A DNA stretch of 53,353 bases, from positions 1 to 53,353 of IMG/VR virus record IMGVR_UViG_3300044229_003740; one strand, written 5' to 3'. Within the stretch, counting starts at the first letter, position 1; every line of letters begins with the position of its first letter. This DNA is from a virus. Taxonomy: Duplodnaviria > Caudoviricetes. The position numbers were made by a program, and so were the translations under genes. Below the pieces are notes generated by a model, which was given only the letters and a program-made list of their open reading frames with translations, ran no database searches and had not been told where the DNA came from. Below are positions 20,866 through 36,047 of this stretch, in pieces.

Positions 20866-20944
20866 TTCATTCTCCTGCTGCTACGAAAAAGCCCCGGCGG
20901 ATGCCAGGGCTTGGGTGGTGATTGGGCTTTAACAGATAATGTTG

Positions 20945-21187: not shown

Positions 21188-21347
21188 TGAATAACTCCTA
21201 GGCGAATCTGAACAGCCAGACTCAACTCCCAATTCATCCGCATGATGATCAGGTCGTGAAGGGTAGCAATGCCCGCCTGTTGTCGCTGCCAGCATTGCCA
21301 CCATGTTAGGAAGTTAGCGTCGCAGGGTGTCATGGGGATAGCTTAAC

Positions 21348-22490
21348 CTATGCAGCCTCAGCGAACAGCCTTTCAAACGTTTCACGGTCACGTGCGCGTA
21401 GCTCTGCAATTGTCAGCTCACCGCCAAGCGGATCACTGAACCGCTCAATTTTGTAGCCGCCCTTTTTGTAAAGCTCGTAGCGGGTAGGGCCAAGCCATTG
21501 GCGCTGAAAGCTTGCCGGTTGCCGTGCGAACCATTGCGGATATTTTGTGCTTGCAGAGACTTGGCCGATCATATCTTCCGGCCGCTTGTCTTTGGGTATT
21601 TGACTCACTGGCTTGAAGGCGCGCACATATGGCCGATTACCCATTATGTTCCCAGCGAAAGAAGGGGCCTGAACTGTGCGGCATCGAAAATGATACGGGG
21701 GTCTGGGGTGAGCGGTACCGACCTTGTGCCTACGGCCATCTATCGAAGCACAATATTTTGTGACCCTAAAATCAATCGTGGCCACGTCAACGACTTCTTC
21801 AACGCCAAGCGCTTCATAGGTCGATTCGTACGCTACATTACTGACATGCCCGCGACTGGTGCGAACAAGGTTATCAATCTCGTTGCGCGTCCAGTTCAGC
21901 GCGCCATCCTTGTACTTGAGTGCCTTAGTGCCGCGTAGAGCTCGAATAATCTGCTGATTCGTCTGGCCGCTGCTAATGCCTTGCCTAATCTGGCTGTAAA
22001 CGATGTTGCGGGTGCGTCTGGGCACATCGTCGAACATATCTTCAACCATCTGGCCTAGCACTGGCTGCTGCATGGCTGACTCATAAACGGCAGCAGCAGC
22101 GGGGGCAGCAGCTACCGCCCCGGTCACGGCATCGGCTACCAAGCTGCGAGCAAAACCCGCCTCATAGCCAGCCAGCTCTTCGAGCGACTTAGCGTTTTCA
22201 GTAGTGACCGCAGTTGCTAGCGACTCGGCCCATTGGTCAATCAGGTTGCGCAAGCCTTTCAGGCGGTCGGTCGTGTATCGACCACGACTGAATGCGGCCA
22301 GCTCAGCAGGCGCTAGGTTATCCAGGCGCTCAGCCAGCTTGACGGCCAGCTCTCCCGCCAGCTCATCAAACTCGGCCACCATACGGTTAACTTGAGCGCT
22401 ACTAGCACGGTGCAGCCATACCGTGTGCGTGGTGATAGCCTCGACCACGACCTCTTGGGCAATGCGCCGTGATTCGCGGTCGTTTGGCAT
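21348..22490 (-). CDS. Head morphogenesis / minor head protein (Mu gpF / SPP1 gp7 family)
   Basis: VATIDFRVT..C.SIDG...PPYHFRCRT; follows portal. Confidence 0.85.
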   Translation of the reverse strand: MPNDRESRRIAQEVVVEAITTHTVWLHRASSAQVNRMVAEFDELAGELAVKLAERLDNLAPAELAAFSRGRYTTDRLKGLRNLIDQWAESLATAVTTENAKSLEELAGYEAGFARSLVADAVTGAVAAAPAAAAVYESAMQQPVLGQMVEDMFDDVPRRTRNIVYSQIRQGISSGQTNQQIIRALRGTKALKYKDGALNWTRNEIDNLVRTSRGHVSNVAYESTYEALGVEEVVDVATIDFRVTKYCASIDGRRHKVGTAHPRPPYHFRCRTVQAPSFAGNIMGNRPYVRAFKPVSQIPKDKRPEDMIGQVSASTKYPQWFARQPASFQRQWLGPTRYELYKKGGYKIERFSDPLGGELTIAELRARDRETFERLFAEAA

Positions 22491-23902
22491 TATGCATCCT
22501 CAAGATTCGGCAGGCCGTCGCCACCCTCCCGCAACGAATCAAGCTGCTCGTCGGTCAGTTCGGTAAGGCCAATTTTGCGCAGCGCGTCGTACAGCACTGC
22601 GCGGGGCGCTTCGCCAGCCATTACGATGTTGGAGACAATTTGCAGAGTGGCGGAATCAATCTCTTCTTTAGAAAACTTGGGCACCACCTTAAAAATGACC
22701 TGCTTGGTCACTTCGGCGTCCTTCATGCCCATCCAATACGCGATGTAGCGAAGCATCTGCTCGACGGCCTCGGCAGCGGTGACGCAGACACTGTAGAGCG
22801 CCGAGTACTGGTCGTTCTGGCGAGCCTTGCGCGCTTCGCCCGACTCTTGGCCACCTATATCGATCACCTTGGCGCCGGACTCTGCGGCGGCGTTTTGCTG
22901 ATCCTGCATGGCCTTGCGCAGCGCATCGATGCCCGCGCCTTGGAACTCCAGATAACCGGCCTGGGCATCCTTGGGCAGCATCCAGGCGGCCATCGGGCCA
23001 GTGACGCGGATATCGTCATCGGTGCCCATGCCGCTAATCCACGGCTGCGGGTGCGCCGTGTAGTGGAGCGCGGCGTAGTAGTCGGCGCTGAGCTGGTAAT
23101 ACTTCAGCGCTGCCTTGGCCATGGTTTGCAGCGGGATCTCGTCAACATCAGCGTTGTTATCGGTGCTGCCCGCAAACACGGCAGGGATGAACGACAGCGG
23201 CGTGCTTTGACTGCCACCGACAAGGCCTGGGTATTCAGGGGGTTCGATCTCGTTCCCGGCATCATTCAGGATGCGAACGCGGTAACGCCTACCTTCCTCG
23301 AGGTCGAGCACCCGGTAAACTGTCTCGTATTCCGGCTTGAACTCGTCGGCACCGTCTTTCACGCGCTGCTCGCTGAACACCACCAGCGTCAGGTCTTGGC
23401 GGCCACCTGCGTCAGCCGTGAGCCAGTTTGGCGCGGTCTCGGCGGTGTAGGTAGCGATATACGGCCGCCCATTATCGTCGAACTCGGCCAGCATCGGCTT
23501 GCGGCCCTTGGTCAGCAGGGCGGAGACGATGCGGAGATAGAGCTGCTTGAGCCCGAATCCGTCGCTGGTCGCCTCATTGATCAGGTCGGCCATGCGCTCC
23601 GGCAACTGAATCTCCGGCTCCTGGCGCGATACCAGTCCGACCATGGTGCGCAATGAGTCTTTGACCCATAGCGGATACTCTGCACGACGCTTGTAGGCGA
23701 GGTAGAGCTGCTTGGCCTGCTCGGGCGATAGCGGGCTGTTGTCCGTTGCTGCCAGCGACTCGGCCTCAATCATTCCCGAGGTTTTGGGCAGGTAGGTGGT
23801 GCCGCCAGCGGAAATGGCGCGCGGCCCGACCAGGGCGTCTTCCATCTCCTGCCACTCCTCGAGCATGGCGGCATATTGATCGTTTTGCGATGTGACCGCC
23901 AT
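22490..23902 (-). CDS. Portal protein (DUF4055-type)
   Basis: YLPK..G...Y.AYKRRAEY, PL..MA..AL.YYQLSADY...LH.TAHPQ; follows terminase. Confidence 0.85.
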   Translation of the reverse strand: MAVTSQNDQYAAMLEEWQEMEDALVGPRAISAGGTTYLPKTSGMIEAESLAATDNSPLSPEQAKQLYLAYKRRAEYPLWVKDSLRTMVGLVSRQEPEIQLPERMADLINEATSDGFGLKQLYLRIVSALLTKGRKPMLAEFDDNGRPYIATYTAETAPNWLTADAGGRQDLTLVVFSEQRVKDGADEFKPEYETVYRVLDLEEGRRYRVRILNDAGNEIEPPEYPGLVGGSQSTPLSFIPAVFAGSTDNNADVDEIPLQTMAKAALKYYQLSADYYAALHYTAHPQPWISGMGTDDDIRVTGPMAAWMLPKDAQAGYLEFQGAGIDALRKAMQDQQNAAAESGAKVIDIGGQESGEARKARQNDQYSALYSVCVTAAEAVEQMLRYIAYWMGMKDAEVTKQVIFKVVPKFSKEEIDSATLQIVSNIVMAGEAPRAVLYDALRKIGLTELTDEQLDSLREGGDGLPNLEDA

Positions 23903-23904
23903 AG

Positions 23905-25230
23905 TTAGCCGAGGCCTCCGATTCGTTTCATGCCGACTTTCGGCTTGTAGATGGGATATTCTTTGAAAATGAAGTAGCCAGCCGCGTCATTTGGGTGGTC
24001 TTTATCGCCTTCTTTCTCAGGCTCGCCGTGTATCGTCCAGGCCTGCTGCTCCAGCGTGTCTGCGTAGGTCGGGCACTTGCTGATATTGACCTTGTAGCGT
24101 CGCTCGCCTTTAGCGTTACAGAAGGCTGCATTCATGCTGTTCACGCGATCTTTAACTGGCGGGTTGCTGGCATCGACAATTACCTTAAACCCCGCCTGCT
24201 TTAACTGCTCAATATCAGTTGTAGAGGCGTTGACGCTTTTTCGTGAATCGCCGCTGGCGTCGGGATAGATGCGTATCTCGCAGGACTTGCGATAATCACC
24301 GTCTCGATATTCCCAATAGCGCTCCTTGATCTGCCGGATCATGTCCGGCGTATCGAGGCCGCCCATAATCTCGTCTACGGCCCTGGGGTCACCATCACGC
24401 TTAACGTGAGTGATCGCACTCATCTTGCCCACGTTGAAGTCGAGGCCGATATAAAGCGGCTCGCCTTTACTTAGCGTGTCGTTGCAATCACTAAGGCGTC
24501 GATCAAACTGGCGGTATACGGTGCCTGTCGTCAGGTTGACGAACAGTCCGCGCAAGTAGGCATCGATAAGCTGAGGCGGGTAGGCCTCAAGCAACGAATC
24601 TATATAGTCATCAGGAAGGTTCGCTTCATTGTCATACGTGGACGCCTGAACCAGTCCGTAGCGCGCCGCCATCTCTGGCTTTTCTCGGAGCGTCTTGACG
24701 AACAGCTCGTGAACAAACTTGAAGCCTTCCGGCGTCGTCGTGACATCAATGCCGTTCTTGAGGTTGTCGACCTTGTAGCGCATCCGCGCCATGATCTTGC
24801 GCCACGCCATACGGGCTTTGGCAGCGGCCATGATATCCAGCTCATCAACCAACGCATGGCCGATCTTGAAGCCGACGATAGCGCCCGGCTTGTCCATCGA
24901 GCGACAAATGGTGGTAGATCGGTATTGGCGACCGCTATACAGGTGCACCTCGCGGTTCCCTTCCCGTATCTCAGCGCGCAGCCCCATGGCGTGAGCCACT
25001 TCCTCAATTGTGGGGTAGAAGATGTCGCGTATCTGAGGGTAGGTGGGGGCAAAGTAGCCCATATTGATACCGGGGTGCTGCCAAGCGTGAGCGCCAATTC
25101 CAGCACAACCTACCCAGGTCTTGCCGCTACCGAAACCGGCCACGTATGCCCGGAACTTGTGCGGCAACGAAAGAAATTCGCCTTGAGGCCGGTTAAGCGT
25201 CACCTCGGTCGCGTTCTGGGCTGCTTGCAT
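23905..25230 (-). CDS. terL: Terminase large subunit
   Basis: Walker A AGFGSGKT, Walker B ALVDELD, TTTPEG, nuclease GLDFN and DHPNDAAGY. Confidence 0.95.
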   Translation of the reverse strand: MQAAQNATEVTLNRPQGEFLSLPHKFRAYVAGFGSGKTWVGCAGIGAHAWQHPGINMGYFAPTYPQIRDIFYPTIEEVAHAMGLRAEIREGNREVHLYSGRQYRSTTICRSMDKPGAIVGFKIGHALVDELDIMAAAKARMAWRKIMARMRYKVDNLKNGIDVTTTPEGFKFVHELFVKTLREKPEMAARYGLVQASTYDNEANLPDDYIDSLLEAYPPQLIDAYLRGLFVNLTTGTVYRQFDRRLSDCNDTLSKGEPLYIGLDFNVGKMSAITHVKRDGDPRAVDEIMGGLDTPDMIRQIKERYWEYRDGDYRKSCEIRIYPDASGDSRKSVNASTTDIEQLKQAGFKVIVDASNPPVKDRVNSMNAAFCNAKGERRYKVNISKCPTYADTLEQQAWTIHGEPEKEGDKDHPNDAAGYFIFKEYPIYKPKVGMKRIGGLG

Positions 25231-25651
25231 CCTGCACCTTAAAGACTACCTGAACGGGTTGGGGGGCATCATTACCCGTATCGGCTTCCGGCTTATTCCG
25301 CCATCGGTCAGGCTTCCGGTTGTTCAGCCAAATAGCTGCAGCGGTTGTATCCGGCGGGTAATGCTTCATCGTCTGATGAGTAATTATCTCGCCATTGTTC
25401 TGAAACACCTTCTCCTCTGGGTGCGTGTAACCAAGGGCGCGCTCATAGAGCCGAGTAGCTACCTCGGCATCCGCTAATATCTTCCCCTTTTTAATGGACT
25501 CCAAAAACTCTTTGTGAGCCTTCTTCCAGTTGTTAATAGTGGACTCAGGCACTTCAAAGAAATCAGCTAAGTCAGCATCCGTCGCCCCCAGCAAGCACAG
25601 TTTGCGGGCCTGCTCGGCGAACTCCGCCCTGTACTTGGTTGGTCTTGCCAT
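25193..25651 (-). CDS. terS: Terminase small subunit (HTH type)
   Basis: MARPTKY...LCLLGATDA.LADFF.V..STINNWK...LYERALGY...PPDTTAA.IWL.NR.P..WR; immediately upstream of terL. Confidence 0.85.
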   Translation of the reverse strand: MARPTKYRAEFAEQARKLCLLGATDADLADFFEVPESTINNWKKAHKEFLESIKKGKILADAEVATRLYERALGYTHPEEKVFQNNGEIITHQTMKHYPPDTTAAAIWLNNRKPDRWRNKPEADTGNDAPQPVQVVFKVQDASSPERDRGDA

Positions 25652-26300
25652 TTTGATATTCCAATAGCTGCGAAGGGGAGAAGGTGCCGTTGAAGTCGTC
25701 AGGCACCTGAGAAAGCTCTATAAATCCATTGCGAATCTTGTCGTAGCACTCATCAAGACCGCCAAATACTCTTATTACGGTATCGTGAAGGCCGGGGTGC
25801 AACTCACGCTTCCACACCTCCCGGCTCTTCATTCGATCAAGATTGTATTGGGCGCCGAGTCTCGTTCGTTCGCCGCAAGAGGTGATGCCTTTAACCTTGT
25901 TCGTTATGCCCTCTTCCTTGAGAAGGCTGATCAGCTCGCGCTCATGCTTATAGGCCGCCGCCTCTGATTCTGCCGGGCAGTAAGCAATTTCTATCTCTTT
26001 TCCCTGAGAATGGACTTCACGAATAGCGCTGTACTTTGCACCGTTACTGACGACGCCAGACCTTGCTTCTCTCGCATGCTGCCGCGAACGGTTTCTTATG
26101 CCTTTACCAACATAGATAACGCGGTCGGTTATAGGATTGATTAGCAAGTAGACGTAATAGCCGCTCTTTGGCTCCTCGCCTGTAAATTCTGGCGACGTCA
26201 TAACAGCAGCAGACGCTAAGCCGTGATGCAAATACTCATCAACAAATCTCGACTGCCGTGCTGTCAGCGCGACAGCCTCCCGGGCAGTCTTCTTAGCCAT
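25572..26300 (-). CDS. GIY-YIG (LEM-3-like) endonuclease with N-terminal terminase-small-subunit stub
   Basis: YYVYLLINP....IYVGKG..NR..QH; first 24 aa contain LTARQSRFVDEYL. Confidence 0.8.
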   Translation of the reverse strand: MAKKTAREAVALTARQSRFVDEYLHHGLASAAVMTSPEFTGEEPKSGYYVYLLINPITDRVIYVGKGIRNRSRQHAREARSGVVSNGAKYSAIREVHSQGKEIEIAYCPAESEAAAYKHERELISLLKEEGITNKVKGITSCGERTRLGAQYNLDRMKSREVWKRELHPGLHDTVIRVFGGLDECYDKIRNGFIELSQVPDDFNGTFSPSQLLEYQNGKTNQVQGGVRRAGPQTVLAGGDGC

Positions 26301-26399
26301 TTGGTTACCTATTCAATGTTTGCGCTTGCGATGCCAGTAACACGACAGCAGCCACACGGCCACTATCCAGCGGAGGCGGCGAGGCGGCGAGGCGACCAG

Positions 26400-26525
26400 T
26401 CATCGCCTGAAGCCTTCCAATAGAGAAACGCCGATTACCGCAAACAGGCATAAGAGAAAAAATGCAGGAACGCCGATGCCTATGCCTAAAGTCCACAGCA
26501 GCCATTCAGGAATGTGGATCGTCAT
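26400..26525 (-). CDS. Small 41-aa membrane protein in lysis region (not in ORF track)
   Basis: MTIHIPEWLLWTLGIGIGVPAFFLLCLFAVIGVSLLEGFRR*; GAGG upstream. Confidence 0.5.
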   Translation of the reverse strand: MTIHIPEWLLWTLGIGIGVPAFFLLCLFAVIGVSLLEGFRR

Positions 26526-26541
26526 ATCGCATGCCTCTCAG

Positions 26542-27105
26542 TTACTTATTGCGAATAGCGCCTATCGCGTCCATAAAGCCAGTAGGCCGCTGCCCGGCAG
26601 ACACCTGCTTGTCCTGGCTGCGCTTATGGACGTTGATGCCGAGAATGGCCAGGGCAACAGACCACATTGGCGTTAAGGCGGTGATGGCCTGGGCGACAAT
26701 GCCCGCTTCTTCCGGTGAGGCGACGATGGTCCACCCAATGGCGATGGATTGCAGGGCCCATGACACGGCCACCAGATAACCGAAGGTCGGACGCCACCGG
26801 CGGACATACACATCATCAGCCTTCGCCTCGGTGCGCATCGTTTCGTTGACCTCGGCTAAGCGGTTTGTCTCAGCCTGTAGCATCAGGCTCATGATTTCCC
26901 GCTGGTGTTCATTCTCGACAGCCTTTAGTTTTGCCGCTGACTCGGAATTTGACGCCGCTTGCTCAAGTGCTTCCGGCGTTGCTTCAACACCCAGAGCGCG
27001 AGCGAGTAGGTCGCCAATTGCAGAGCCAGCCGGGCCACCAAGAGCCCCGCCAGCAACCGGCGCAACTTTACCCACCGTTTTGGCAACATCGGACCATTCC
27101 ATCAT
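26542..27105 (-). CDS. Holin-family protein (GTA-type 3TM holin)
   Basis: VAP..GGALGGPAG N-terminus, WRPTFGY and C-terminal transmembrane segments ending LGI....RS.DK. Confidence 0.75.
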   Translation of the reverse strand: MMEWSDVAKTVGKVAPVAGGALGGPAGSAIGDLLARALGVEATPEALEQAASNSESAAKLKAVENEHQREIMSLMLQAETNRLAEVNETMRTEAKADDVYVRRWRPTFGYLVAVSWALQSIAIGWTIVASPEEAGIVAQAITALTPMWSVALAILGINVHKRSQDKQVSAGQRPTGFMDAIGAIRNK

Positions 27106-27347
27106 TAACCTCCACGGCGCGTGTTATTCGCGATCTCAAGCAAGTAGCGGTTCGTCTCGGCGTGTCGCTCATCCATCTTCTTTTCCAGACGATCAACGCG
27201 GTGGTGCATTTCCCGCATGTCTTCGCGGTGCCAGCGGTACAGAACGCCCGCCAAGGTGAAGATGCCCAATGTCAGTATTCCCAGGGTGTAGCGCAGCACG
27301 GTCGGCGTTTGGTCGAAGATCAAGTCCCATACTTTGATGTCAGTCAT
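27105..27347 (-). CDS. Small membrane-anchored lysis-region protein (holin/antiholin-like)
   Basis: One transmembrane helix followed by a coiled coil; between endolysin and holin. Confidence 0.6.
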   Translation of the reverse strand: MTDIKVWDLIFDQTPTVLRYTLGILTLGIFTLAGVLYRWHREDMREMHHRVDRLEKKMDERHAETNRYLLEIANNTRRGG

Positions 27348-27897
27348 TCGGCCCTCGCAGGTCAGCCCGCTCGTACCACGTCTTGTCCTCGCCGCTCAGC
27401 GTTCCCCCGGCCTTCACGTATTCGTGCATCAGGTCGCCCAAGGCGTGTTCGTGCTGGCCGTATCCAGCACCAGGCAGCGATGCCCAGATATTCCGGCAGC
27501 GGCCAATGGCTTCGGTAATATCGCCGTCATGGATCAGGTCGAGCGCTCGCTGCTCTTTGATCTGCTGGATTGCGTAGCGGTCCTGGCTAACCGGGCCGAA
27601 GTCGGGCAAGCCGAGTTGGTCGCGGTAGTGACGCCAGTAGCGGGAAAGGATTTGATACCGACCGGCAGCGGTGGACCAGACGCCGGGGGCGTATTCGATA
27701 GCATCGCGCTTGCTTGGTAGCGGGTGATCGCCGTACCCGTCGAAGGTGCTCATTGCGTTGGGCAGCGAGCCCACCAGGACGTCATAGCCGTCGTCGCTCT
27801 TTTCGAGCATGGCCGGACCGATCTCGGCAAACGCGAGCATGTCCAGAAAAGCACATAAGTTGACGCTACCCGCGTCTTTAGCAGTAATGCGCGGCAT
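27340..27897 (-). CDS. Endolysin, lambda R-type lytic transglycosylase
   Basis: AFLDMLAFAE, GYDV.VG, STAAGRYQ.L, DF.P.SQD, IWASLPGAGYGQ.EH. Confidence 0.93.
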   Translation of the reverse strand: MPRITAKDAGSVNLCAFLDMLAFAEIGPAMLEKSDDGYDVLVGSLPNAMSTFDGYGDHPLPSKRDAIEYAPGVWSTAAGRYQILSRYWRHYRDQLGLPDFGPVSQDRYAIQQIKEQRALDLIHDGDITEAIGRCRNIWASLPGAGYGQHEHALGDLMHEYVKAGGTLSGEDKTWYERADLRGPND

Positions 27898-28009
27898 AGC
27901 GGAACCTCAAACAAAAAAGCCCCGCATAAGCGAGGCATGGTATGAGCGCCGCCCCATAGGTTCCGGGGTTCAAGGCCGGAGGGCGACATAAAATAATTCA
28001 GAAAAGGAC

Positions 28010-28038
28010 TTGCTATGGAAACTAAGTTTCCGTATACT
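28010..28038 (+). promoter_or_regulatory. acr-aca promoter with palindromic Aca operator in the spacer
   Basis: TTGCTA-17-TATACT; GGAAACT-A-AGTTTCC at 28017-28031. Confidence 0.8.
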
Positions 28039-28064
28039 GATCACATCAGCCAAGGAGAACAGAC

Positions 28065-28523
28065 ATGAAACTACTTCACACCAGCCCAAGCGAAATCACT
28101 GAAATCAACTCATTTGGTCGTTTTGGCGAGTTTCTGTTCTTCGTTGATGAAGCGTATGTGATGACGGCTGGCGAGCACGTTACCTACAGCATCGAGATTG
28201 AAGACGATGCGATCATCGAAGCGGGCCAGCTTTTCTATCATGACGGTGCCGAGAAGCTAACTGACTTAGTTGCCGAGTTAGCAGAAAAACTAAATATCGA
28301 CGAAGACGACGCCGAAGCGCTGATCGACGAAAGCAAAAGCATTTTTGATATGGATCTCGACATTGAGCCAGAAGACATGGCGGATGCTAGCTGGGACGTT
28401 CAAGTATTCACCGCTCGCGCTGCTCAAATCCTTGGCTTTCGTGCTGTTGAAGTCGAAGACGAGCAAGGCACTTCTTACATGGTCAGCATGATGGGCCGCG
28501 AATCAGAGCTGCTGGCAGAATGA
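28065..28523 (+). CDS. acrIF11: Anti-CRISPR protein, AcrIF11 family (ADP-ribosyltransferase-like)
   Basis: Very acidic 152 aa; L.HTS..EI..I...G.FG..LFF, W.VQ...A.AA..LG..AV...DEQGT.Y recall AcrIF11 homologues; followed by an aca-like HTH gene. Confidence 0.8.
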   Translation: MKLLHTSPSEITEINSFGRFGEFLFFVDEAYVMTAGEHVTYSIEIEDDAIIEAGQLFYHDGAEKLTDLVAELAEKLNIDEDDAEALIDESKSIFDMDLDIEPEDMADASWDVQVFTARAAQILGFRAVEVEDEQGTSYMVSMMGRESELLAE

Positions 28524-28732
28524 TTGATGCAGAGAAGTATCACGACACAACGAAAGCAAAAGAGCTGATCGCCGAAGCGCTCAAGGCCTGCGCTGAGTCA
28601 AAGCCGGAGCTCGCCCGGCGAATGGGTATGACTCGGCAGTACATCAACGCAGTGCTGCGCGGTGATAAGACCATGAGTTACGGCATGCAGGTCATGCTTG
28701 AGCAGATAGCAAAAGAAAAGCCCCGCCGGTGA
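28520..28732 (+). CDS. aca7: Anti-CRISPR-associated HTH repressor, Aca7-like
   Basis: MIDA.K..D....ELI..AL...ELA.R....R.Y......G.K.MSY..QVMLEQ recalls Halomonas Aca7; ATGA overlap with acr gene. Confidence 0.8.
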   Translation: MIDAEKYHDTTKAKELIAEALKACAESKPELARRMGMTRQYINAVLRGDKTMSYGMQVMLEQIAKEKPRR

Positions 28733-28744
28733 GGGCGAGGCTTT
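28714..28744. terminator. Bidirectional terminator (tR'-like for the late promoter; also ends acr-aca)
   Basis: AAAGCCCCGCC...GGCGAGGCTTT hairpin with A/T runs on both sides. Confidence 0.65.
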
Positions 28745-28786
28745 GAATTAGGTGCTGATTAAGCGTAGCTGTAACAGCTTAGGAAT

Positions 28787-28815
28787 ATCATAGTCCATAT
28801 CGCACAGGGTGGCAA
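28787..28815 (-). promoter_or_regulatory. Late promoter (pR'-like)
   Basis: TTGCCA-17-TATGAT directly downstream of the Q-position gene and ~40 bp before a terminator. Confidence 0.7.
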
Positions 28816-28818
28816 GTA

Positions 28819-29457
28819 TCAAGATGCTTTTTGTAATCGCCGCTTAATGCCCAATAGCTCCTCTATCTCAACCTGGCCAGCATCATCTAGCTCATACGCC
28901 ACGTCTTGCAGTAGCTGCCAGGGCTTGGCCCATTGTTCGCCCCAGCGCTTTAGGTCGAGTGACTGGCTGTGCTTGCCGCGCAGCCACTTGCCCACCTTCC
29001 AAGGCTCGTCGAGCGTCCGGCCTTCCTCCCGGCCCTTGTGATCGATCTTCTCCGGCACGCTGTGCAGGCGCACCCAGACACGCTCAATTGCAGCCAAAGA
29101 AAGCCAGTAAAGCATCTTCTGGCGGGCAGGTGCCCACTTGGAAAAGCCAGGCAACCGGCTTGCTGTAATCTGCGAGACGGAAAGGGCGGCCATGGTGGCG
29201 GCCTTCTTCATCGAGGCGTCATTCAACGCGCCGCGGCAGTTCAGGAAGTCGCCCACCGACTGCCGGGGCATGTCCATGCGCTCGATTGCCGTGTTGACCG
29301 CTGCATACTCAGCGTTCGTCCCAGCGCCGACGCCGCCTTTAATCGAGCAATCAACCCGGCAGCCCAGCTCGGCCATCTCCATGCTGACAACGCCCTGGCT
29401 GCGCAGTCCATCGTCTCGAGCCAGCACCCAGGCTAACCGTGCATCGTTGGTGATCAT
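28819..29457 (-). CDS. Putative late-gene regulator/antiterminator (Q position)
   Basis: Last gene of the nin-like region, immediately followed by a pR'-like promoter and terminator; assignment positional. Confidence 0.5.
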   Translation of the reverse strand: MITNDARLAWVLARDDGLRSQGVVSMEMAELGCRVDCSIKGGVGAGTNAEYAAVNTAIERMDMPRQSVGDFLNCRGALNDASMKKAATMAALSVSQITASRLPGFSKWAPARQKMLYWLSLAAIERVWVRLHSVPEKIDHKGREEGRTLDEPWKVGKWLRGKHSQSLDLKRWGEQWAKPWQLLQDVAYELDDAGQVEIEELLGIKRRLQKAS

Positions 29458-29669
29458 GGTCTTGCCTCCCAGTATCCTTGCCCCCAGGTAGACGGCTTGA
29501 GCAGCCTGCTTTCACTCACCCATCGCTCTACTGCGTCATGAAACCCATGGTTTCCGCAGTTATCGCAAACATTTTTTGGAAAACAGTTATAGAACTCGGA
29601 GTCATGAGCATCTCTTCTAAAGAGGCTATCGCACGCATTGCACCTAACGCTCAGCATGAATTCGCTCAT
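29454..29669 (-). CDS. Small zinc-ribbon protein
   Basis: CNAC...CDNC; ATGA overlaps. Confidence 0.6.
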   Translation of the reverse strand: MSEFMLSVRCNACDSLFRRDAHDSEFYNCFPKNVCDNCGNHGFHDAVERWVSESRLLKPSTWGQGYWEARP

Positions 29670-29926
29670 ACCACCTCGCTTTTAATCCACTCATGTAGGC
29701 TCGGGCTTGCCGATATAATGTGCAGATCCACATCGTTAGACTGGCCCATGATACTGGCGAAAAGCTCGAACATGGCAAGGTGGCTCTCGGTTACCACGAT
29801 CATCTGCTCGCCAGGGCGCTCAAGCTTCTGTAGCCCGTTCCAAGTCGAGGTCTCCCGCCAGCCTTCCTTCATCACGCCGCCAATCTCGATGTCGTAGAAA
29901 CGCTCTGTTCTGATCGTTGCTTTCAT
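29666..29926 (-). CDS. Hypothetical protein
   Basis: Translationally coupled chain of ORFs. Confidence 0.6.
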   Translation of the reverse strand: MKATIRTERFYDIEIGGVMKEGWRETSTWNGLQKLERPGEQMIVVTESHLAMFELFASIMGQSNDVDLHIISASPSLHEWIKSEVV

Positions 29927-30117
29927 ACCGCCCCCTTGCTGTGCTTTTCCGCTATCCGCCGTGCCTTGTTGCCGTCCGGCGCTTCGCCTATCTCCTGGCT
30001 GCCGTAATACACCAGGAACAGGTCAACGCCGCCGCAGGTGAATTTGCTGATCCTGTAGCCGCCGCAATCTGAGATGATGCAGCGATCATTAACACGGTCT
30101 TTGAGCTTCCACTTCAT
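29923..30117 (-). CDS. Hypothetical protein
   Basis: Translationally coupled chain of ORFs. Confidence 0.6.
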   Translation of the reverse strand: MKWKLKDRVNDRCIISDCGGYRISKFTCGGVDLFLVYYGSQEIGEAPDGNKARRIAEKHSKGAV

Positions 30118-30244
30118 CGGGTCACCATCCTCACGCAGTACAAAATGCTGTGTCCGGCTTCACGGCATTCGGCCCAAACGTTGACTCCTTGCCAAATGAC
30201 AAACGAAAAAACCACGATGCAAGCCAATATCAATAAGATTGTTT

Positions 30245-30616
30245 TCACGCCGCCACCTCCACCGGAATGATCTCTACCCAAGTCCCGCTCTCGGCTTTGC
30301 GGTCCACCTCGGGCGGATCGAGGATGACGCGACGCACGTACTGGCCCCGGTCATCGGGTATCAGCCCGGCGGCCACAAGGCCATCCTCGATATGCTTCAT
30401 GCTGATGGAGTAGTTGCTGGTGTCCCGCATGCGCTCGCCTTTGCCCAGCCGTGGGCGAAACACCAGGTCGACTTGGCAAGCCACAGGGACGACGCCCTGG
30501 CACGCTGCCTTGCAGGCCCAGGCAGCCGCTTTCACTTCCCGGTTGTTTTTGTGCTTGTTGGCACGCAGCGCAACGTTGGTGCTGCTTGCGATGTAGGGAA
30601 CGAATAAGCGCATCAA
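30245..30616 (-). CDS. RusA-like Holliday junction resolvase
   Basis: RD.SNY...K.IEDGLV..G.I.DD...V motif. Confidence 0.75.
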   Translation of the reverse strand: MMRLFVPYIASSTNVALRANKHKNNREVKAAAWACKAACQGVVPVACQVDLVFRPRLGKGERMRDTSNYSISMKHIEDGLVAAGLIPDDRGQYVRRVILDPPEVDRKAESGTWVEIIPVEVAA

Positions 30617-30801
30617 TCCCCCTCAGCCAGGTGGTGCCTGTCGGCGATCAACTCTTCCGCTAGTGCTGTAGATGCGTGACCAAACTCATCTTTAAGCCTT
30701 GAGGGATGCGCGCCTCCTGCCTCACCTGTGTGACGCCATTTTTCTAGAGCGGCTTTTGCCTTCGCCAGCCGCTGCCCGGCCTTGCTGCTGATCATGATCA
30801 T
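30613..30801 (-). CDS. Hypothetical protein
   Basis: Coupled ORF in nin-like region. Confidence 0.55.
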   Translation of the reverse strand: MIMISSKAGQRLAKAKAALEKWRHTGEAGGAHPSRLKDEFGHASTALAEELIADRHHLAEGD

Positions 30802-30904
30802 TCGTCGATCTCCATGCCGTGATTGCCCGATGCGTGGATATACATGCCGAGACCGGTCAGGAAGACGATGCCGATAATGCCTAGCGCGGGTAGGATCCAG
30901 ATGC

Positions 30905-31327
30905 TCATGCCGTCTCCTTGGCGTCGATTAACGCCAGTGCTTGCGATAACTGGTTGGCAGTCTCGCCGGTGAACTGATGGAGCCCGGCGATGATGGTTTG
31001 GCGCAGCCAGCGCGGTTGCTCAGCCTGCATAAACGGATCTCGGTGTACTTGGTCATGACATGCCCGGCACAGCGGCATAGCGAAGCTGTCTGGGGCGGTT
31101 AAACCGGTGCCTGAAAGCTGCCAACCAAGGCCGATAACGTGGTGCGGATCGCAAGGCGTGGTGCCGCACACACAACAAGGCAGTGATCGCACGAACGCCA
31201 GGTATTTCTCTGAACGCCACCGCTTGTCGGTGCTCTGCTTGCGCGCGGCTTTACGCTTGATCGGCTTGCGGGCCATGGGCGCCTTGGCTTTGAGCGGGCT
31301 CTTGCGAGCTAATGGGGTGCGCTTCAT
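30905..31327 (-). CDS. DUF968-like zinc-binding nin-region protein (start MKRTPL)
   Basis: YL.FVRSLPCCVCG....DPHH..G...D.FAMPLCR.CH; GGAGG RBS. Confidence 0.75.
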   Translation of the reverse strand: MKRTPLARKSPLKAKAPMARKPIKRKAARKQSTDKRWRSEKYLAFVRSLPCCVCGTTPCDPHHVIGLGWQLSGTGLTAPDSFAMPLCRACHDQVHRDPFMQAEQPRWLRQTIIAGLHQFTGETANQLSQALALIDAKETA

Positions 31328-31791
31328 GCCGCTGCCTCCTTGTAGCTCTCGTAGACCGCCAGAGCAGGCTCGCTCCAGTTGACGCCAAGCTCTACGCCGG
31401 TCGCATACAGAAACTCGATGAACGCCGCGGCTTCGGCTTTGCGGAATTTGGTGGTGCTGGGTCGGACGTACACCGCCTCCTGGCTTTTCCAGTCCCATAC
31501 CTTCTCGCCTGGGTTTGCCAGCGGGTCGCCCTGCTCTTCCATTTCAATTGCAAACTGATTCACCAGCACGGCCTTAACGCCATCGAGTGAGTAGCCACGA
31601 AAGCACTGGTGATGGATGTCGCCGATCATGGCGTGGAACTTGGCGTTCTGGCCCAGCTCGCGGCCAGGGCGGCGGATGGCGACCTCGACAGGCCCCGCTT
31701 CCAATCCCTTTGCAATGGCGGCGCTGGCCCGGGCGACCGAATACTGGTGCTGATGCAGGCTGGCGACGGGGATCACAAGCTCTTTACCCAT
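31324..31791 (-). CDS. ninB: NinB-family recombination protein
   Basis: R.L.QNAKFHAMIGDI, ST.KF.K.E...FIEFLYA.G.E.GV.WS. Confidence 0.85.
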   Translation of the reverse strand: MGKELVIPVASLHQHQYSVARASAAIAKGLEAGPVEVAIRRPGRELGQNAKFHAMIGDIHHQCFRGYSLDGVKAVLVNQFAIEMEEQGDPLANPGEKVWDWKSQEAVYVRPSTTKFRKAEAAAFIEFLYATGVELGVNWSEPALAVYESYKEAAA

Positions 31792-32020
31792 GCTCCACCT
31801 CCCTCAACATCTGCCGATGCTTGCTCACCATGGGCTGGCTAACGCTCCACTTCTCTGCGATTTCTCGCTGCATCATTGAGCTATTGAGGTCTGCGACGTA
31901 TCTTGGATTGCCCATCAGCCCCTTAGCTGCGCTCTGTTGGCGGTTCTGGCGTCGCGGCTGCGCTTCGCGCATAGGCCATGGCACTTGGGTTTGCGCCCAG
32001 TCGTATTTAGTTAGACGCAT
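31784..32020 (-). CDS. Small HTH protein (start MRLTKYDW)
   Basis: QREIAEKWSVSQPMVSK HTH; GGGGGTG RBS. Confidence 0.55.
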   Translation of the reverse strand: MRLTKYDWAQTQVPWPMREAQPRRQNRQQSAAKGLMGNPRYVADLNSSMMQREIAEKWSVSQPMVSKHRQMLREVEHG

Positions 32021-32207
32021 GGCGCACCCCCATAAAAGCGGTGAAGCGGTCGAAAAAGCCCGGCTTAGCAAGCTGCTGTAAGTCGCTGGAGGTAAAGTAC
32101 CGCTCACCCTCTGGCGTTGAGCACTTCACCGAGCCGCTGGCCATGGGCTCGATAATCTCGATGCCCTGGTCGCGCAGCCATTTGAGTTGCATCTTTGAGA
32201 AGGTCAT
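32007..32207 (-). CDS. Hypothetical protein
   Basis: GAGGTG RBS, coupled to the upstream gene. Confidence 0.55.
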   Translation of the reverse strand: MTFSKMQLKWLRDQGIEIIEPMASGSVKCSTPEGERYFTSSDLQQLAKPGFFDRFTAFMGVRHASN

Positions 32208-32944
32208 GCGACACCTCGCTGGCGATCTTCGGCCTGCTTGATCAGCTCATTGCGTCGCTTTTCTAACTGACGGCGGCGTTCTTCCTCAGCCTCAGCCTTG
32301 GCGTCATTGTCATCGTCAAGCAATGATCTCAGGTGCCTTATGTTCGCCTGAACACGCTCCTTTTCATCGGGCGGCAGCTCTTCGTCCGGGTCCTTGAAGC
32401 CGTGCGGCGAAGGCAGCAGGTGTTCTACCTTGGGCGCTTCGAGCCGACCCTTTTTAATCGCCTCGCTGATAGCGTCCTGGCGGCGTTCTGGGCTATAGCC
32501 GAGCGATACCTGCCACTTGGGTGTGCGGCCTTCCGCTTTCGCCTTGGCAACCTCGCGCTCATAGGCGCCAATAAACGCCATCCGGGCGCCTACCTTGTCG
32601 CCAATATCCAGCACCGGGCGGGCGGTGCCCATGGCGGCGGCCACTTCTTCCGTCCAGACAATGGTGTCCATGTCGTCTTCGCCGCTTAGCGCAAGCGCCC
32701 ATGCCTCGTTTGGCGACATGAAGGCGTCGGCGCTCGGCATGCGCTCAAGAATCGCAGCCAGCGTCAGTCGGCCAGATAGCTCTGAGCGGCAGCGCGCCAG
32801 GGCTTGCTCAATCTCGCCACGCTCGTATTGACGAAGGTCGCGGATCATCAGCGATGCAGCGGCTGGCTTGATCTCATTGCCCAGCACTTCGGCGGTGGCG
32901 TAAAGCTGCTCCAGGAGCTCTTCGGCATCGGTTTTCGTCAACAT
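32204..32944 (-). CDS. Replication protein in helicase-loader (lambda P) position
   Basis: Coupled to initiator; ATAEVLG...AL.RCR.EL.GRLTLAAI...EAWA.AL...GARMAF..AY.R. Confidence 0.55.
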   Translation of the reverse strand: MLTKTDAEELLEQLYATAEVLGNEIKPAAASLMIRDLRQYERGEIEQALARCRSELSGRLTLAAILERMPSADAFMSPNEAWALALSGEDDMDTIVWTEEVAAAMGTARPVLDIGDKVGARMAFIGAYEREVAKAKAEGRTPKWQVSLGYSPERRQDAISEAIKKGRLEAPKVEHLLPSPHGFKDPDEELPPDEKERVQANIRHLRSLLDDDNDAKAEAEEERRRQLEKRRNELIKQAEDRQRGVA

Positions 32945-33864
32945 CAGTCGTCTCCCCAGCCGGACGCCAGCAGGCGCTTGGCTTCGTCAACGTTGCTCAA
33001 GTTGGATTGCGTCGAATCCATCTGGCGGGCGCGGGTCTGCGTCATCTGGCTGCCGGTCTGCATCTGCGTGGCAATGGCCTCGCAGTCGGCCAGCATCAGG
33101 CCTACGGGGTGGCTCTTGGTGACGTAGAACTGGTTGTTCATGGCCAGGTAGTACGCGGCCACGGCAGGGGCTAGCTCTTTGCCAACGCGGTCGACAAGGT
33201 GGCCCATTTGTCCAGCGGTCTTTTGGTTCCAGATGGGATAAACCGTGTATCGGCGACGGTAAGCCATGGCGTAGTTAGCCCATGCCTTGAACGTTTTGGC
33301 GGTTTGGTCTTTCGGGCCAGGCATGTCGTGAGGGATTTCACATCGCGGTTTATCGCTCGAACGAATCGCGACCACGTTACCGGCGGCGACCGGCGCTTCA
33401 GCGTCGGGTGCAACATTGCTTTCATCAGTGCTTGGTAGTTCCTCAGTACTTACTAAACCCTCAGTACTTACTAGTGTCGGATTTGCCGTATACGGTTCAG
33501 CCGTATCCGGGTAACCCGTATCCGGTGAATCCACCACTTCCGGATTATCCGTAAGCGGAGTCTCGGTAACGATGTAATTCACCTTGCCAAACTCTCCAGC
33601 TTTGCCGCGACCGCGCTCACGCATTAGGTAGCCAGCTTTCTCCAGCTCAGTCAGCATTGCGTAGACAGCGTCGCGTCCAGACTTCTTATAAGCGCCCTGA
33701 GTCTCTTTGATCAGGTGAGCGACAGATACTTGCCAGTGGTCAGGCTTGCCAAGCAGGAATACAAGAAGGCCGCGAGCAGCCCAGGAAAGGCGCTGGTCTT
33801 CGCTAATGGATTTATTCAGCAGGTAGAAATTGCTTTCAGGGCGTGGCGCTCTCTTAATACTCAT
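32944..33864 (-). CDS. Replication initiator (O-like, N-terminal winged helix)
   Basis: D.RLSWAARGLL.FLL.KPD.W...GRDAVY..L.ELE.AGY; internal iteron-like repeats. Confidence 0.8.
   Translation of the reverse strand: MSIKRAPRPESNFYLLNKSISEDQRLSWAARGLLVFLLGKPDHWQVSVAHLIKETQGAYKKSGRDAVYAMLTELEKAGYLMRERGRGKAGEFGKVNYIVTETPLTDNPEVVDSPDTGYPDTAEPYTANPTLVSTEGLVSTEELPSTDESNVAPDAEAPVAAGNVVAIRSSDKPRCEIPHDMPGPKDQTAKTFKAWANYAMAYRRRYTVYPIWNQKTAGQMGHLVDRVGKELAPAVAAYYLAMNNQFYVTKSHPVGLMLADCEAIATQMQTGSQMTQTRARQMDSTQSNLSNVDEAKRLLASGWGDD
33441..33558. repeat. Putative replication origin iterons within the initiator gene
   Basis: CCGTATACGG, CCGTATCCGG x2, CCACTTCCGG, CCGTAAGCGG at 15-18 bp spacing, plus CCTCAGTACTTACTA x2. 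Confidence 0.6.
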
Positions 33865-34222
33865 TGCTCAGCTCCAGGCGCTCAAAAAAGAATTTGTGAT
33901 CAGGATCGCTTGCCACTTCTTGAATTAAGCCGTGCGCCTCTAGCCAGCGAAGCTGATTGATATTGAACCCAGCTTCGCTAACCGCTTTGCTGCAAATGCG
34001 CTTAAGGCGGAAGTCTTCTAGGGTTTGAATGCCCTTGGATTTGTTGCAAAAACCGCAGGCGGCAAAAAGATTTTCATCCTTATTGGTGCCGCCCTTGCAC
34101 TGTGGGACGATGTGATCAAAATGGCGATTTGAGTCATTTAAAGCGCAGCCGCAATAGGCGCACTGGCCTTCAGTCTTCTCGAGAATGCGCAGCCTTTTTG
34201 AATCCGATATGAGCTTGCTCAT
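33854..34222 (-). CDS. HNH endonuclease (start MSKLISD)
   Basis: CAYCG...DHIVP..KGGTN...NL..AC..CN.SKG. Confidence 0.85.
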   Translation of the reverse strand: MSKLISDSKRLRILEKTEGQCAYCGCALNDSNRHFDHIVPQCKGGTNKDENLFAACGFCNKSKGIQTLEDFRLKRICSKAVSEAGFNINQLRWLEAHGLIQEVASDPDHKFFFERLELSNEY

Positions 34223-34968
34223 GCTGCTACCTCCAAACCAGCCAAAGCCACCAGCTCGGCGAACTGATCGCGATACCAATGCGGTTGTGTCTCTCGTGGT
34301 GACTGAGGGCTGACGACATTCTTGCCGTAGGCCAAGCCTTCGTTGGTGATGCACCAGAAATGCTTTACCTTGCCGCCCGTCGATTTACGCTCACGGCGTT
34401 CAAGTAGGCCAATCTGGTAAAGACGCTCGTTAAAGGCAGCGGCGCTTGAGTTGATGCCGTAGTCGCGCAGCAGTTGGGTGGCGCTGGCGGTGTCCATGGC
34501 GCCTACGTGGCCAGGGGCGCTGTCTTCGGTGTAGCTGGGCAGGAAGCTGGTATCGGCGCCAATGGCCTGTCCCGCCTTCTTCAGCATGACAATGCGGCCG
34601 GAATCAGAAGCGCGCAGTAGGTTGGCAGCGCATTCAACCAGGGCCAGGGTGGCCGGAATATTGGACTGAACTGTCACAGGCTTGGCGGAACCGCTTTCCA
34701 GGTCATACCAACGCTTGATAACAGCAGCGCGGCGCTTTACGTCATAGCCGGTTACCAAAACTTCGGTGTGATAACGATCAAGCTCGAAGCACGACAGAGT
34801 ACGTCCGGTGCTGTCTTGGTACTCACCCCAGAATTGGGTTGAGTCAATTTCCATCTGTTCGCACATAGCGCGAATGTCACGCATCACATGGTCATGCCGC
34901 TTACCAGTAAGCTCCGCTATTTCGCGGCTGCTCATGGTGGGCTTGTGGTATTCTGCGAGCTGGTTCAT
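34219..34968 (-). CDS. Rha-family regulator with antirepressor-like C-terminal domain
   Basis: MSSREIAELTGKRHDHVMRDI, LVTGYD...R..VI.RW; C-terminal SAT.LL...G.N..SP..PRETQPHWY. Confidence 0.85.
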   Translation of the reverse strand: MNQLAEYHKPTMSSREIAELTGKRHDHVMRDIRAMCEQMEIDSTQFWGEYQDSTGRTLSCFELDRYHTEVLVTGYDVKRRAAVIKRWYDLESGSAKPVTVQSNIPATLALVECAANLLRASDSGRIVMLKKAGQAIGADTSFLPSYTEDSAPGHVGAMDTASATQLLRDYGINSSAAAFNERLYQIGLLERRERKSTGGKVKHFWCITNEGLAYGKNVVSPQSPRETQPHWYRDQFAELVALAGLEVAA

Positions 34969-34991
34969 AATTACCTCACTAAGTTGAAGTT

Positions 34992-35029
34992 AAAAGCCCG
35001 CCCGCTCCCCAGCGATTGGCGGGCTTTTT
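34992..35029. terminator. Bidirectional terminator-like hairpin upstream of rha
   Basis: AAAAGCCCGCC...GGCGGGCTTTTT. Confidence 0.6.
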
Positions 35030-35101
35030 GCGTTAAAGGGCGCTCGACTCAATTCGTGGTATCGTCAAATTTCCCAAAGTGACAAAACCACGGAGCCGAG
35101 C

Positions 35102-35545
35102 ATGAAAGGCATTTTTGAGTTTGATATTGAGGAATGGACGAAAGAGCGTGACGCGATTGTTGCAAAGCACGACAAAGGCGATTACGACGCGGACGCCATG
35201 GAGAAATTGCTGCATTACGCCAACGCCAGGACAATCGAGGCGCTGTGCATAAAGCACTTCATCTTCAGGTGCCGGATGACCTACTTCTTTGGCCGACCCG
35301 ATGTTCGGGATAGCGTTGACGAATTGCTGCGCGTAGCCGCCATCGACAAGCTTGGCCTCTCCCTGAGAGACGCCAAAAGCTTTAGCTACGACGACCTGAT
35401 CTTCATGCTTCGAGGAGAGATCAGCAGAACAGGACTTCCCGACCACGTAGCTGATGCCATCCTTGATGACCCGAAAGTGGATTCGGTTGTCTTTAGTGGA
35501 GTCGTGTTTAAGCATGCTTCCGTCCGGCCAGCTTCTCGGCGATAG
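35102..35545 (+). CDS. Hypothetical moron protein, opposite to the pR operon
   Basis: 147 aa, GGAG RBS. Confidence 0.65.
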   Translation: MKGIFEFDIEEWTKERDAIVAKHDKGDYDADAMEKLLHYANARTIEALCIKHFIFRCRMTYFFGRPDVRDSVDELLRVAAIDKLGLSLRDAKSFSYDDLIFMLRGEISRTGLPDHVADAILDDPKVDSVVFSGVVFKHASVRPASRR

Positions 35546-35936
35546 CGCGATGCCTGCTGGTCTCGTTGTCAGCAATAGCCGCAATTCCAGCCAAGACGTC
35601 TATCCAGGCGTCACGGGAAACGCCCTCGGGTGGCTCTTGGTTATGCCAGCGGTGAAGTGCGTCCATGAAAATAGAGCTAGCTGCATCGCCCATTTTGGCG
35701 TGGTGGTCAGCTAGATCGTCGGGGCTGACAGCAGCCTCATAAGCCGCCCGCACTGCGCGGGCGGTCTGCTCAAAGAACGCCTCTCGGGTAATGCCTTCGC
35801 CTTGCACGGCGCGCAAGGCGGTCTCGTGAAAAGACGGCTGATCGAACAAGCGGTTAATCGTCTCGATAGTGAGTTCGCTCAGGTCGTAGCCAGCAGTTTT
35901 CTCGATAGTGAATTGAAGCCGTGATTCCTGTCCCAT
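35508..35936 (-). CDS. Hypothetical protein in cII position
   Basis: GGAGGT RBS; first gene after cro. Confidence 0.7.
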   Translation of the reverse strand: MGQESRLQFTIEKTAGYDLSELTIETINRLFDQPSFHETALRAVQGEGITREAFFEQTARAVRAAYEAAVSPDDLADHHAKMGDAASSIFMDALHRWHNQEPPEGVSRDAWIDVLAGIAAIADNETSRHRAIAEKLAGRKHA

Positions 35937-35976
35937 ACCTACCTCCGGTTATCGTTTTGGGCGTTTGCCCACCTAC

Positions 35977-35992: not shown

Positions 35993-36047
35993 CCCAATCA
36001 TGGGCGATGCGCACCTATAACGGCTGACCTATACTGCTTCCTATGAA

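Follow-up and report, generated by a model that had tools for sequence, protein, structure and literature searches.

A probable acrIF11-aca7 anti-CRISPR operon lying antisense ahead of the lysis genes of a lambdoid Halomonas/Vreelandella-type prophage

The 53,353-nucleotide (nt) stretch of viral DNA analysed here, referred to throughout as the window, is a complete stand-alone provirus record of IMG/VR (IMGVR_UViG_3300044229_003740; Duplodnaviria, Caudoviricetes). At positions 28010-28732 its plus strand carries a compact pair of genes with their own control region, very probably a genuine AcrIF11-Aca7 operon of an already known kind, directed against clustered regularly interspaced short palindromic repeats (CRISPR) immunity and residing in a lambdoid prophage of the Halomonas/Vreelandella type. 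The predicted acr promoter (28010-28038) consists of a -35 hexamer TTGCTA (28010-28015), a 17-nt spacer and a -10 hexamer TATACT (28033-28038), matching 9 of 12 consensus positions; the promoter scan is weak when taken alone, with 2 sites against a shuffle mean of 1.2. A predicted Aca7 operator of 19 bp, ATGGAAACT-A-AGTTTCCGT, spans 28015-28033, with 8 of 9 half-site positions symmetric. Its inverted-repeat arms occupy 28014-28023 and 28025-28034, and the perfect core GGAAACTAAGTTTCC (28017-28031) has no second match in the window when up to 2 mismatches are allowed (0.09 matches expected; at least one match in 8 of 100 shuffles). A second small palindrome read from the sequence, CTGAT-CAC-ATCAG (28037-28049), overlaps the -10 hexamer, and a ribosome site AAGGAG (28052-28057) lies 7 nt 5' of the acrIF11 ATG.

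The acrIF11 gene (open reading frame (ORF) A, 28065-28523) encodes an acidic protein of 152 amino acids (isoelectric point 4.05; 38 Asp and Glu against 8 Lys and Arg), assigned as an ADP-ribosyltransferase of the AcrIF11_Pae2 type. It is followed by aca7 (ORF B, 28520-28732), which encodes a predicted helix-turn-helix (HTH) autorepressor of 70 amino acids with an isoelectric point of 9.41, and whose start overlaps the ORF A stop by 4 nt (ATGA). The G+C content of the cassette is 49%, compared to 56.7% for the window. The order of promoter, operator, acr and aca genes is found, together with the 4-nt overlap, in 7 further distinct loci (L002-L008; L012 and L013, duplicates of L005 and L006, were not counted) as well as in L095, G024 and G070. 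Because this arrangement recurs in other loci, the layout is not due to chance. Scanning viral contigs with an Aca7 profile yielded L095 as the one new locus, the other nine rows being known loci or weak HTH matches. The promoter, operator, acidic gene and coupled HTH gene named in a preliminary description of this DNA are all present at the positions given there.

ORF A matches the NCBIfam equivalog model NF052490.1 ('AcrIF11 family anti-CRISPR ADP-ribosyltransferase') with an E value of 3.3e-53 and 180.4 bits (cut-off 50), the match spanning model positions 1-142 of 142. It also matches phrog_11282 (3.9e-26), and PF26151 is annotated on all ORF A homologs among the matches listed; a Pfam scan of ORF A against a local copy that lacks PF26151 gave nothing above noise. 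By sequence, PDB entry 8DWQ (AcrIF11_Pae2) is matched over the full length (E 8.4e-46, 50% identity), while 6KYF (AcrIF11_Pae1) is matched over residues 104-139 only (E 0.0024). An AlphaFold2 model of ORF A (mean predicted local distance difference test, pLDDT, 89.6) returned the same two structures as the leading Foldseek matches, 8DWQ at E 4.7e-11 (template modelling (TM) scores 0.72/0.67, 50% identity) and 6KYF at E 5.3e-6 (TM 0.55/0.60, 23% identity). The model has the ADP-ribosyltransferase-like fold of the solved AcrIF11 structures.

AcrIF11_Pae2 (WP_033936089.1), the protein of 8DWQ, was reported to ADP-ribosylate Csy1 in vivo (Chen et al., bioRxiv 10.1101/2024.08.26.609590). According to the same preprint, both Csy1 ADP-ribosylation and phage protection are lost in the D146A/E147A and H20A/Y46A variants, and neither is lost in S22A/E25A. 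In the 8DWQ alignment the essential residues H20, Y46, D146 and E147 correspond to H5, Y31, D132 and E133 of ORF A, and S22/E25 to S7/E10. It was found that H5, S7, Y31, D132 and E133 are invariant in 22/22 homologs sharing 60-90% identity with ORF A.

The preliminary description regarded this copy as longer than, and diverged from, the Pseudomonas aeruginosa prototype. This is correct only with respect to AcrIF11_Pae1, the first characterised member, which shares the fold and the C-terminal motif round the catalytic acid, whereas its chain is shorter (137 residues) and 23% identical to the window protein. A length of 152 amino acids is already that of AcrIF11_Pae2, so that size by itself is no argument for a new target range. 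The window protein belongs to the same length class as Pae2, aligns with it over its full length at 50% identity (TM 0.72) and retains both the H5/Y31 and the D132/E133 pairs. It differs in its central helical segment, which is far less conserved, in the genus, and in its partner, which is Aca7 here, whereas acrIF11 was first found through its neighbour aca1 (10.1101/2024.08.26.609590).

Domains of the AcrIF11 family (NF052490) also occur inside giant open frames, namely L116:3883-13965 (G128:C35) and G049:C3:146926-147306. The L116 frame of 3360 amino acids additionally contains the Pfam domains InPase, LPD23 and LPD38, which make it a 'large polyvalent protein' belonging to a mobile element. 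The G049 frame has about 2684 amino acids. These frames suggest that an AcrIF11-type ADP-ribosyltransferase domain can be delivered within an injected multi-domain protein.

ORF B aligns as a whole protein with the structure of Aca7 from Halomonas caseinilytica (PDB 9LX1; E 1e-11, residues 1-66 against 1-65), to which it is 41% identical in an eight-sequence alignment, and its match to Pfam HTH_3 is sub-threshold (19.6 versus a cut-off of 23). The AcrIF11/Aca7 identity proposed in the preliminary description is hence borne out by the NF052490.1 profile search together with this structure match. The DNA-contact residues R38, Y40, K46 and K49 of the reference protein are R39, Y41, R47 and K50 in ORF B, with R39, Y41 and K50 invariant in 8/8 aligned Aca7 sequences. 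Family membership, conserved catalytic and DNA-contact residues and the operator architecture are established for this locus.

The H. caseinilytica acrIF11-aca7 promoter was described as a -35 TTGAAA, 17 nt and a -10 TATACT, and electrophoretic mobility shift assays reported there indicate that Aca7 needs the 19-bp inverted repeat IR2, ATGATAACTCAGTTATCAT, between both hexamers, a further repeat IR3 (CTGTATTCAACAG) being dispensable for binding; repression of the acr promoter was demonstrated for that Aca7 (PMC12658196). The window operator ATGGAAACTAAGTTTCCGT occupies the same promoter frame and register as IR2 with a different half-site sequence, and the palindrome at 28037-28049 takes the position of IR3. 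Comparison across loci places GATAAC half-sites in L004, L005 and L006, all 3 with the recognition helix SR(T/V)YLQLL. GGAAAC half-sites are present in the window, L002, L003, L007, L095 and G070, with L008 close (one arm GTTTCA), and in all 7 of these loci the helix reads TRQY(I/L). A single locus (G024) combines GTATTC with TRDYLTKL. As read from these aligned sequences, the operator half-site covaries with the Aca7 recognition helix. The main text of PMC12658196 mentions neither a GGAAAC operator nor any terminator, and a literature search on aca7 and acrIF11 in Halomonas matched PMC12658196 and PMC9410906 only.

Judged from sequence, the proteins, gene order and mode of control are those of the published acrIF11-aca7 operon. 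The operon of H. caseinilytica JCM 14802 shares the gene order, the 4-nt overlap, the -35 position, the 17-nt spacer, the -10 TATACT and the place of the 19-bp repeat, and it too lies in a prophage, antisense between early genes and lysis/packaging genes. The differences are that AcrIF11 is 64% and Aca7 41% identical between the two, that the half-site is GGAAAC in the window and GATAAC in H. caseinilytica, that the recognition helix is TRQYINAV rather than SRTYLQLL, that the R5/E32 pair of the reference is E5/R33 in the window, and that the 3' end of the window aca7 is fused into a phage late terminator.

Other regulators accompany acrIF11 homologs elsewhere. Near position 2862526 of G024:C1 (L114/L115), an acrIF11 homolog is paired with a distant Aca7-like protein, and the same promoter frame carries the third operator, ATGTATTCTTAGAATACAT. 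The homologs near 158010 of G006:C28 and near 163161 of G078:C9 are paired with HTH proteins of 125 and 133 amino acids, respectively, and have TTCG...CGAA palindromes in their promoters. Three IMG/VR contigs (L009-L011) encode a 64%-identical AcrIF11 homolog that overlaps by 4 nt with an unrelated HTH protein of 61 amino acids, the acr promoter palindrome being CGCTCATTGAGCG.

The acr-aca transcript has a single hairpin at which it could end, T1 (28717-28744), which is the first terminator of the late leader on the minus strand. Its minus-strand form is a mismatch-free 11-bp stem with UUUUCUUUUG behind it (-20.9 kcal/mol, z -4.15). The stem read from the plus strand contains a C.A mismatch, and its U tract is poor; the terminator scan calls it on the minus strand only. 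T1 is kept in L002, L003, L008 and L014, the last of which has no acr cassette. In L014, a gene 88% identical to orf212, the window gene upstream of the late leader, is followed by the same promoter, leader and T1 and then, after about 130 nt, by a different endolysin. Homology to L014 detected by blastn covers window positions 28715-29458, and that to other acr cassettes runs from 27991 or 28009 to 28716. Because the former starts at 28715 and the latter stops at 28716, the junction is placed at 28715/28716, inside aca7.

The mobile acrIF11-aca7 cassette is thus in all likelihood the segment of about 0.7 kb from about 27991 to 28716, as delimited by homology. The last codons of aca7 (KPRR-stop) fall within the T1 hairpin, and the Aca7 C-terminus reads KEKPRR in the window versus KESHQ in the closest relative, L007. 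Given the position of the junction, T1 is the phage's terminator and not the cassette's. The preliminary description had listed a shared terminator as part of a self-contained unit; the hairpin is indeed present, whereas its attribution to the cassette has to be given up in favour of the phage late leader. It is nonetheless highly likely that T1 doubles as the stop for the acr transcript.

The surrounding genes follow a lambdoid order. It starts from a cI-type repressor (36145-37056, plus strand), and the minus strand then encodes an Ant-like protein, an O-like replication protein, NinB, RusA and orf212 (28819-29457), followed by the acr cassette on the opposite strand and by the lysis genes, past which lie the small terminase, large terminase and portal genes. 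A late-type promoter, TTGCCA-17-TATGAT, is predicted on the minus strand at 28787-28815 (10 of 12 consensus positions), with a -10-like TAAGCT downstream of it (28776-28781). This module of promoter, -10-like TA(A/G)GCT and hairpin is kept in L002, L003, L008 and L014, and in L007 with ACTAAGCTG. On the far side of the cassette a second minus-strand terminator, T2 (27919-27936; -17.7 kcal/mol, tail UUUUUUGUUU), lies 22 nt upstream of the start of the endolysin (27340-27897; phrog_90 at 3.5e-49), the first lysis gene. Further minus-strand genes at 26542-27347 encode a membrane protein of 80 amino acids and a holin with three transmembrane segments (PF11351 GTA_holin_3TM at 1.7e-13). Tandem hairpin terminators ahead of the endolysin are also seen in L003, L008, L014, L016 and L018 and are common in such Halomonas-type prophages.

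Since orf212 follows NinB and RusA and precedes the lysis genes, it is a candidate Q-type antiterminator. It has no family match in Pfam, NCBIfam or PDB by sequence, nor in phage records by tblastn; in PHROGs it matches only phrog_3373, of unknown function, and it has 4 representative homologs only. Its AlphaFold2 model (pLDDT 82.9) was compared with 48,161 chains by VIA-align, which ranked the antiterminator AlpA (7xyb_G) at 1 (Z 7.7, root mean square deviation 4.6, 141 residues aligned) and Q-lambda (4mo1_A) at 2 (Z 7.0, root mean square deviation 3.8, 103 aligned). Foldseek against Q-lambda in the loading complex (7ubn_Q) gave a probability of 0.91 with an E value of 0.5, and among the Atlas neighbours of orf212 are clusters with Phage_antiter_Q in 11% of their members, which we treat as a lead only. 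Based on the predicted structure, orf212 is probably Q-like, and we do not file it as a member of the Q family. The antisense placement between a late-type promoter and the lysis genes, as the preliminary description had it, is backed by the empty-site relative L014 and by the probably Q-like fold of this upstream gene.

The late control region of lambdoid phages, comprising Q, PR' and tR', is a known slot for accessory genes, as in lambda and the Stx phages. The window resembles such a region in having a gene at the Q position, with a fold that may be Q/AlpA-like, followed by a constitutive-looking promoter, -10-like element, terminator(s) and lysis genes. It differs in that the cassette is antisense to late transcription and sits between tandem terminators, and in that orf212 lacks a sequence-level Q family. 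The same order of Q-like gene, leader, minus-strand terminators, antisense aca7/acrIF11 and lysis genes is present in L007, whose Q-like allele is 29% identical to orf212 (N-terminus) and whose endolysin is different. L002, L003 and L008 depart from this order in having the cassette immediately upstream of the leader module, from which it diverges. Wherever the flanks could be matched, the cassette is antisense to the flanking genes. From these gene orders, the cassette appears to settle recurrently between the Q-like gene and the lysis genes.

Two further genes mark the right part of the provirus. A transposase gene (49547-50647; phrog_506, 2.5e-77) lies inside it near the right end, and a large serine-type integrase (51800-53353; phrog_95, 6e-83) occupies an open frame that runs off the window end.

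As the window is a stand-alone record, evidence for type I-F pressure was drawn from the host family. The nearest AcrIF11 relatives are in Halomonas and Vreelandella, and 201 genomes of their family were sampled. Cas8f is present in 73 of the 201 genomes and an AcrIF11-family match in 9. Cas8f of H. elongata matches PA14 Csy1 with an E value of 1.8e-114, and GGTKPQNISQLN round N250 is identical in the two; N250 of Csy1 is the residue reported to be modified by AcrIF11 (Chen et al., 10.1101/2024.08.26.609590). Arrays were taken from the sequence flanking Cas8f in 40 of these 73 genomes and in G003 (H. elongata 153B), and 41/41 of these stretches contained I-F arrays, giving 2125 spacers (2097 unique). 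Twenty of the 2125 spacers agree with the window in 26-30 of their 32 positions, compared to none of the reversed spacers at 26 or more, and 14 of these 20 have a CC protospacer-adjacent motif against a background of 0.068 (binomial p 1e-12). A further G003 spacer, outside the 20, matches window positions 8608-8639 at 28/32 with CC. None of the window-matching spacers falls inside the acrIF11-aca7 cassette.

Five of the 20 matching spacers fall within 440 bp of small minus-strand ORFs at 40546-40986, which may be either a spacer hot spot or a segment that related phages conserve to an unusual degree. Run against an initial set of loci, the G003 spacers gave the 28/32 window match only. A DNA search of window positions 20001-40000 in the 201 genomes, scoring two candidates per genome, placed 0/14 of the fetched 30-38-nt matches between direct repeats. 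Segments of about 30 nt at 20325-20356, 20883-20915, 22902-22934 and 37444-37479 recur at 91-95% identity in many Halomonadaceae genomes, and none of the 14 copies fetched lies in a repeat array.

Self-targeting was assessed in the 6 genomes that have both acrIF11 and an I-F array, using one array and 40 kb round acrIF11 per genome. In 4 of the 6, spacers of the genome's own array match the DNA round acrIF11 perfectly (32/32) with a flanking CC, 1-4 in each and 10 in total. G003 has four such spacers, plus two own spacers at 29/32, against the 34.6-kb contig that carries acrIF11-aca7, while G006 has 2, G024 has 3 and G078 has 1. None was found in G049 (82 spacers), where the AcrIF11-like domain lies in a giant ORF, or in G070 (17 spacers). 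As a control, the other 41 arrays give 0 perfect matches on the six targets and two matches with one mismatch. The self-targeted relatives encode AcrIF11 proteins 61-66% identical to that of the window, those of G006 and G078 being paired with a different, longer HTH protein. Perfect self-targeting in acrIF11-carrying genomes is the classic footprint of an active Acr, seen here in relatives and not in the window host. AcrIF11 was reported to rescue engineered self-targeted P. aeruginosa lysogens (Chen et al., 10.1101/2024.08.26.609590). Type I-F pressure, which the preliminary description saw implied for the host, has support for the host family as a whole.

For this particular copy, catalysis, target and repression by Aca7 are inferred. 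In the mechanism proposed, the cassette's own sigma-70 promoter would drive AcrIF11 early in infection, with low-level expression in the lysogen. AcrIF11 would then disable type I-F CRISPR as an ADP-ribosyltransferase dependent on nicotinamide adenine dinucleotide (NAD), and a translationally coupled Aca7 dimer would bind the 19-bp inverted repeat between the -35 and -10 hexamers and shut the acr promoter. On the minus strand, the order is Q-like gene, predicted late promoter, T1, cassette, T2 and endolysin, which places the cassette antisense within the phage's probable late leader.

Several observations weigh against this assignment. The enrichment of Cas8f is weak, with 6 of 9 acrIF11-positive genomes against 67 of 192 others (one-sided Fisher p 0.059); Cas8f occurs in just one, H. 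elongata 153B (G003), of the five genomes where acrIF11-aca7 was initially detected, and no Cas8f match was obtained in G001 and G002, which carry the closest AcrIF11 relatives (87% identity). The self-targets lie 1.6-26 kb from acrIF11 and may not all be in the same element. The middle helical region of ORF A is its least conserved part, with about 18 of 47 positions identical to Pae2 by a hand count from the alignment. Finally, residues R5 and E32 of the reference Aca7 dimer are E5 and R33 in the window, E29 being kept as E30. Positions 5 and 33 are acidic/Arg in 4 of the 8 aligned sequences and Arg/Glu in the other 4, and in the alignment E5/R33 looks like a reversed salt bridge, a pairing not stated in the main text of PMC12658196.

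Some of these points would fit an AcrIF11-fold enzyme that modifies another defence system or a host protein rather than the I-F Cas8f. The genomes of the closest relatives, G001 and G002, are those without Cas8f; the most diverged part of ORF A is the central helical region, which Chen et al. (10.1101/2024.08.26.609590) proposed to set Csy specificity; and the AcrIF11-family domains inside large polyvalent proteins show that the domain is reused. Such retargeting is nevertheless very unlikely, with ORF A far above an equivalog-level hidden Markov model cut-off, all catalytic residues invariant, I-F present in 73/201 family genomes with an identical target motif in Halomonas Cas8f, and homologs of 61-66% identity residing in genomes that target the DNA round these homologs perfectly with spacers of their own I-F arrays. 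The pair could also be read as a toxin-antitoxin module for prophage stabilisation or abortive infection, with ORF A as the NAD-consuming toxin (RES/MbcT-like) and ORF B as the antitoxin (Xre/HigA-like): Foldseek ranks 3-6 are the RES-type toxins VPA0770, MbcT and Xre-RES (E 0.04-0.12, probability 0.72-0.91), ORF B has a sub-threshold match to the HigA antitoxin model TIGR02607 (25.9 bits versus a cut-off of 47.7), and Aca proteins were described as resembling the antitoxins HigA2 and GraA (Shehreen et al.). However, the matches to AcrIF11 and Aca7 are stronger than these by many orders of magnitude, and AcrIF11 in P. aeruginosa was reported to modify Csy1 only and to leave the host unharmed (Chen et al., 10.1101/2024.08.26.609590), leaving a toxin-antitoxin pair extremely improbable.

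The regulatory meaning of the cassette's position is more debatable. It is somewhat unlikely, but a serious alternative, that orf212 is no antiterminator, that 28787-28815 is no late promoter and that T1 and T2 are ordinary operon-end terminators, the cassette then simply occupying an intergenic space in an orientation without regulatory significance. The 4 representative homologs and missing sequence family of orf212 fit this alternative, as do its fold scores (Z 7.0-7.7), which lie below the tool's caution level for all-helical proteins and may be non-specific, the promoter scan (2 sites versus 1.2 expected) and the location of the cassette upstream of, rather than inside, the leader module in L002, L003 and L008. 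Against it stand the best two of 48,161 chains, both Q-type antiterminators, the Foldseek probability to Q-lambda and, as a lead only, the Atlas clusters; moreover, the order NinB, RusA, orf212 and lysis genes is that of lambda, and the module of promoter, -10-like element and hairpin is kept beside unrelated flanking genes.

If orf212 does act as a Q-type protein, the antisense placement in a Q-dependent late leader could serve as a timer that switches the cassette off late in infection, independently of Aca7. In the lysogen and in early infection, T1 would halt a constitutive transcript from the late promoter before it reaches the cassette, and the acr promoter would fire freely, its transcript ending at T1. 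Late in infection, the Q-like protein would make RNA polymerase resistant to terminators, giving heavy transcription antisense through aca7 and acrIF11, and collision together with antisense RNA would silence the cassette. The arrangement is found again in L007, on a different phage backbone, and the replacement of the aca7 3' end by the terminator may point to selection on the junction. The late-leader wiring suggests that late antisense transcription may help to turn the cassette off, and we regard a timer of this kind as tentative and rather unlikely.

The window provides a defined case of an acr cassette integrated into what is probably the late-control region of its phage. Its operator and recognition helix form a second natural pair, with a third in a relative, that is usable to test how Aca7 reads DNA. 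These operator and helix classes, the apparently natural charge swap of the Aca7 dimer interface and the late-leader wiring are modestly new points, and they leave the identity of the system as it was. For the host family, the genomic evidence indicates that in wild Halomonadaceae AcrIF11 homologs protect resident elements against the genome's own perfectly matching spacers, which matches the engineered lysogens of Chen et al.

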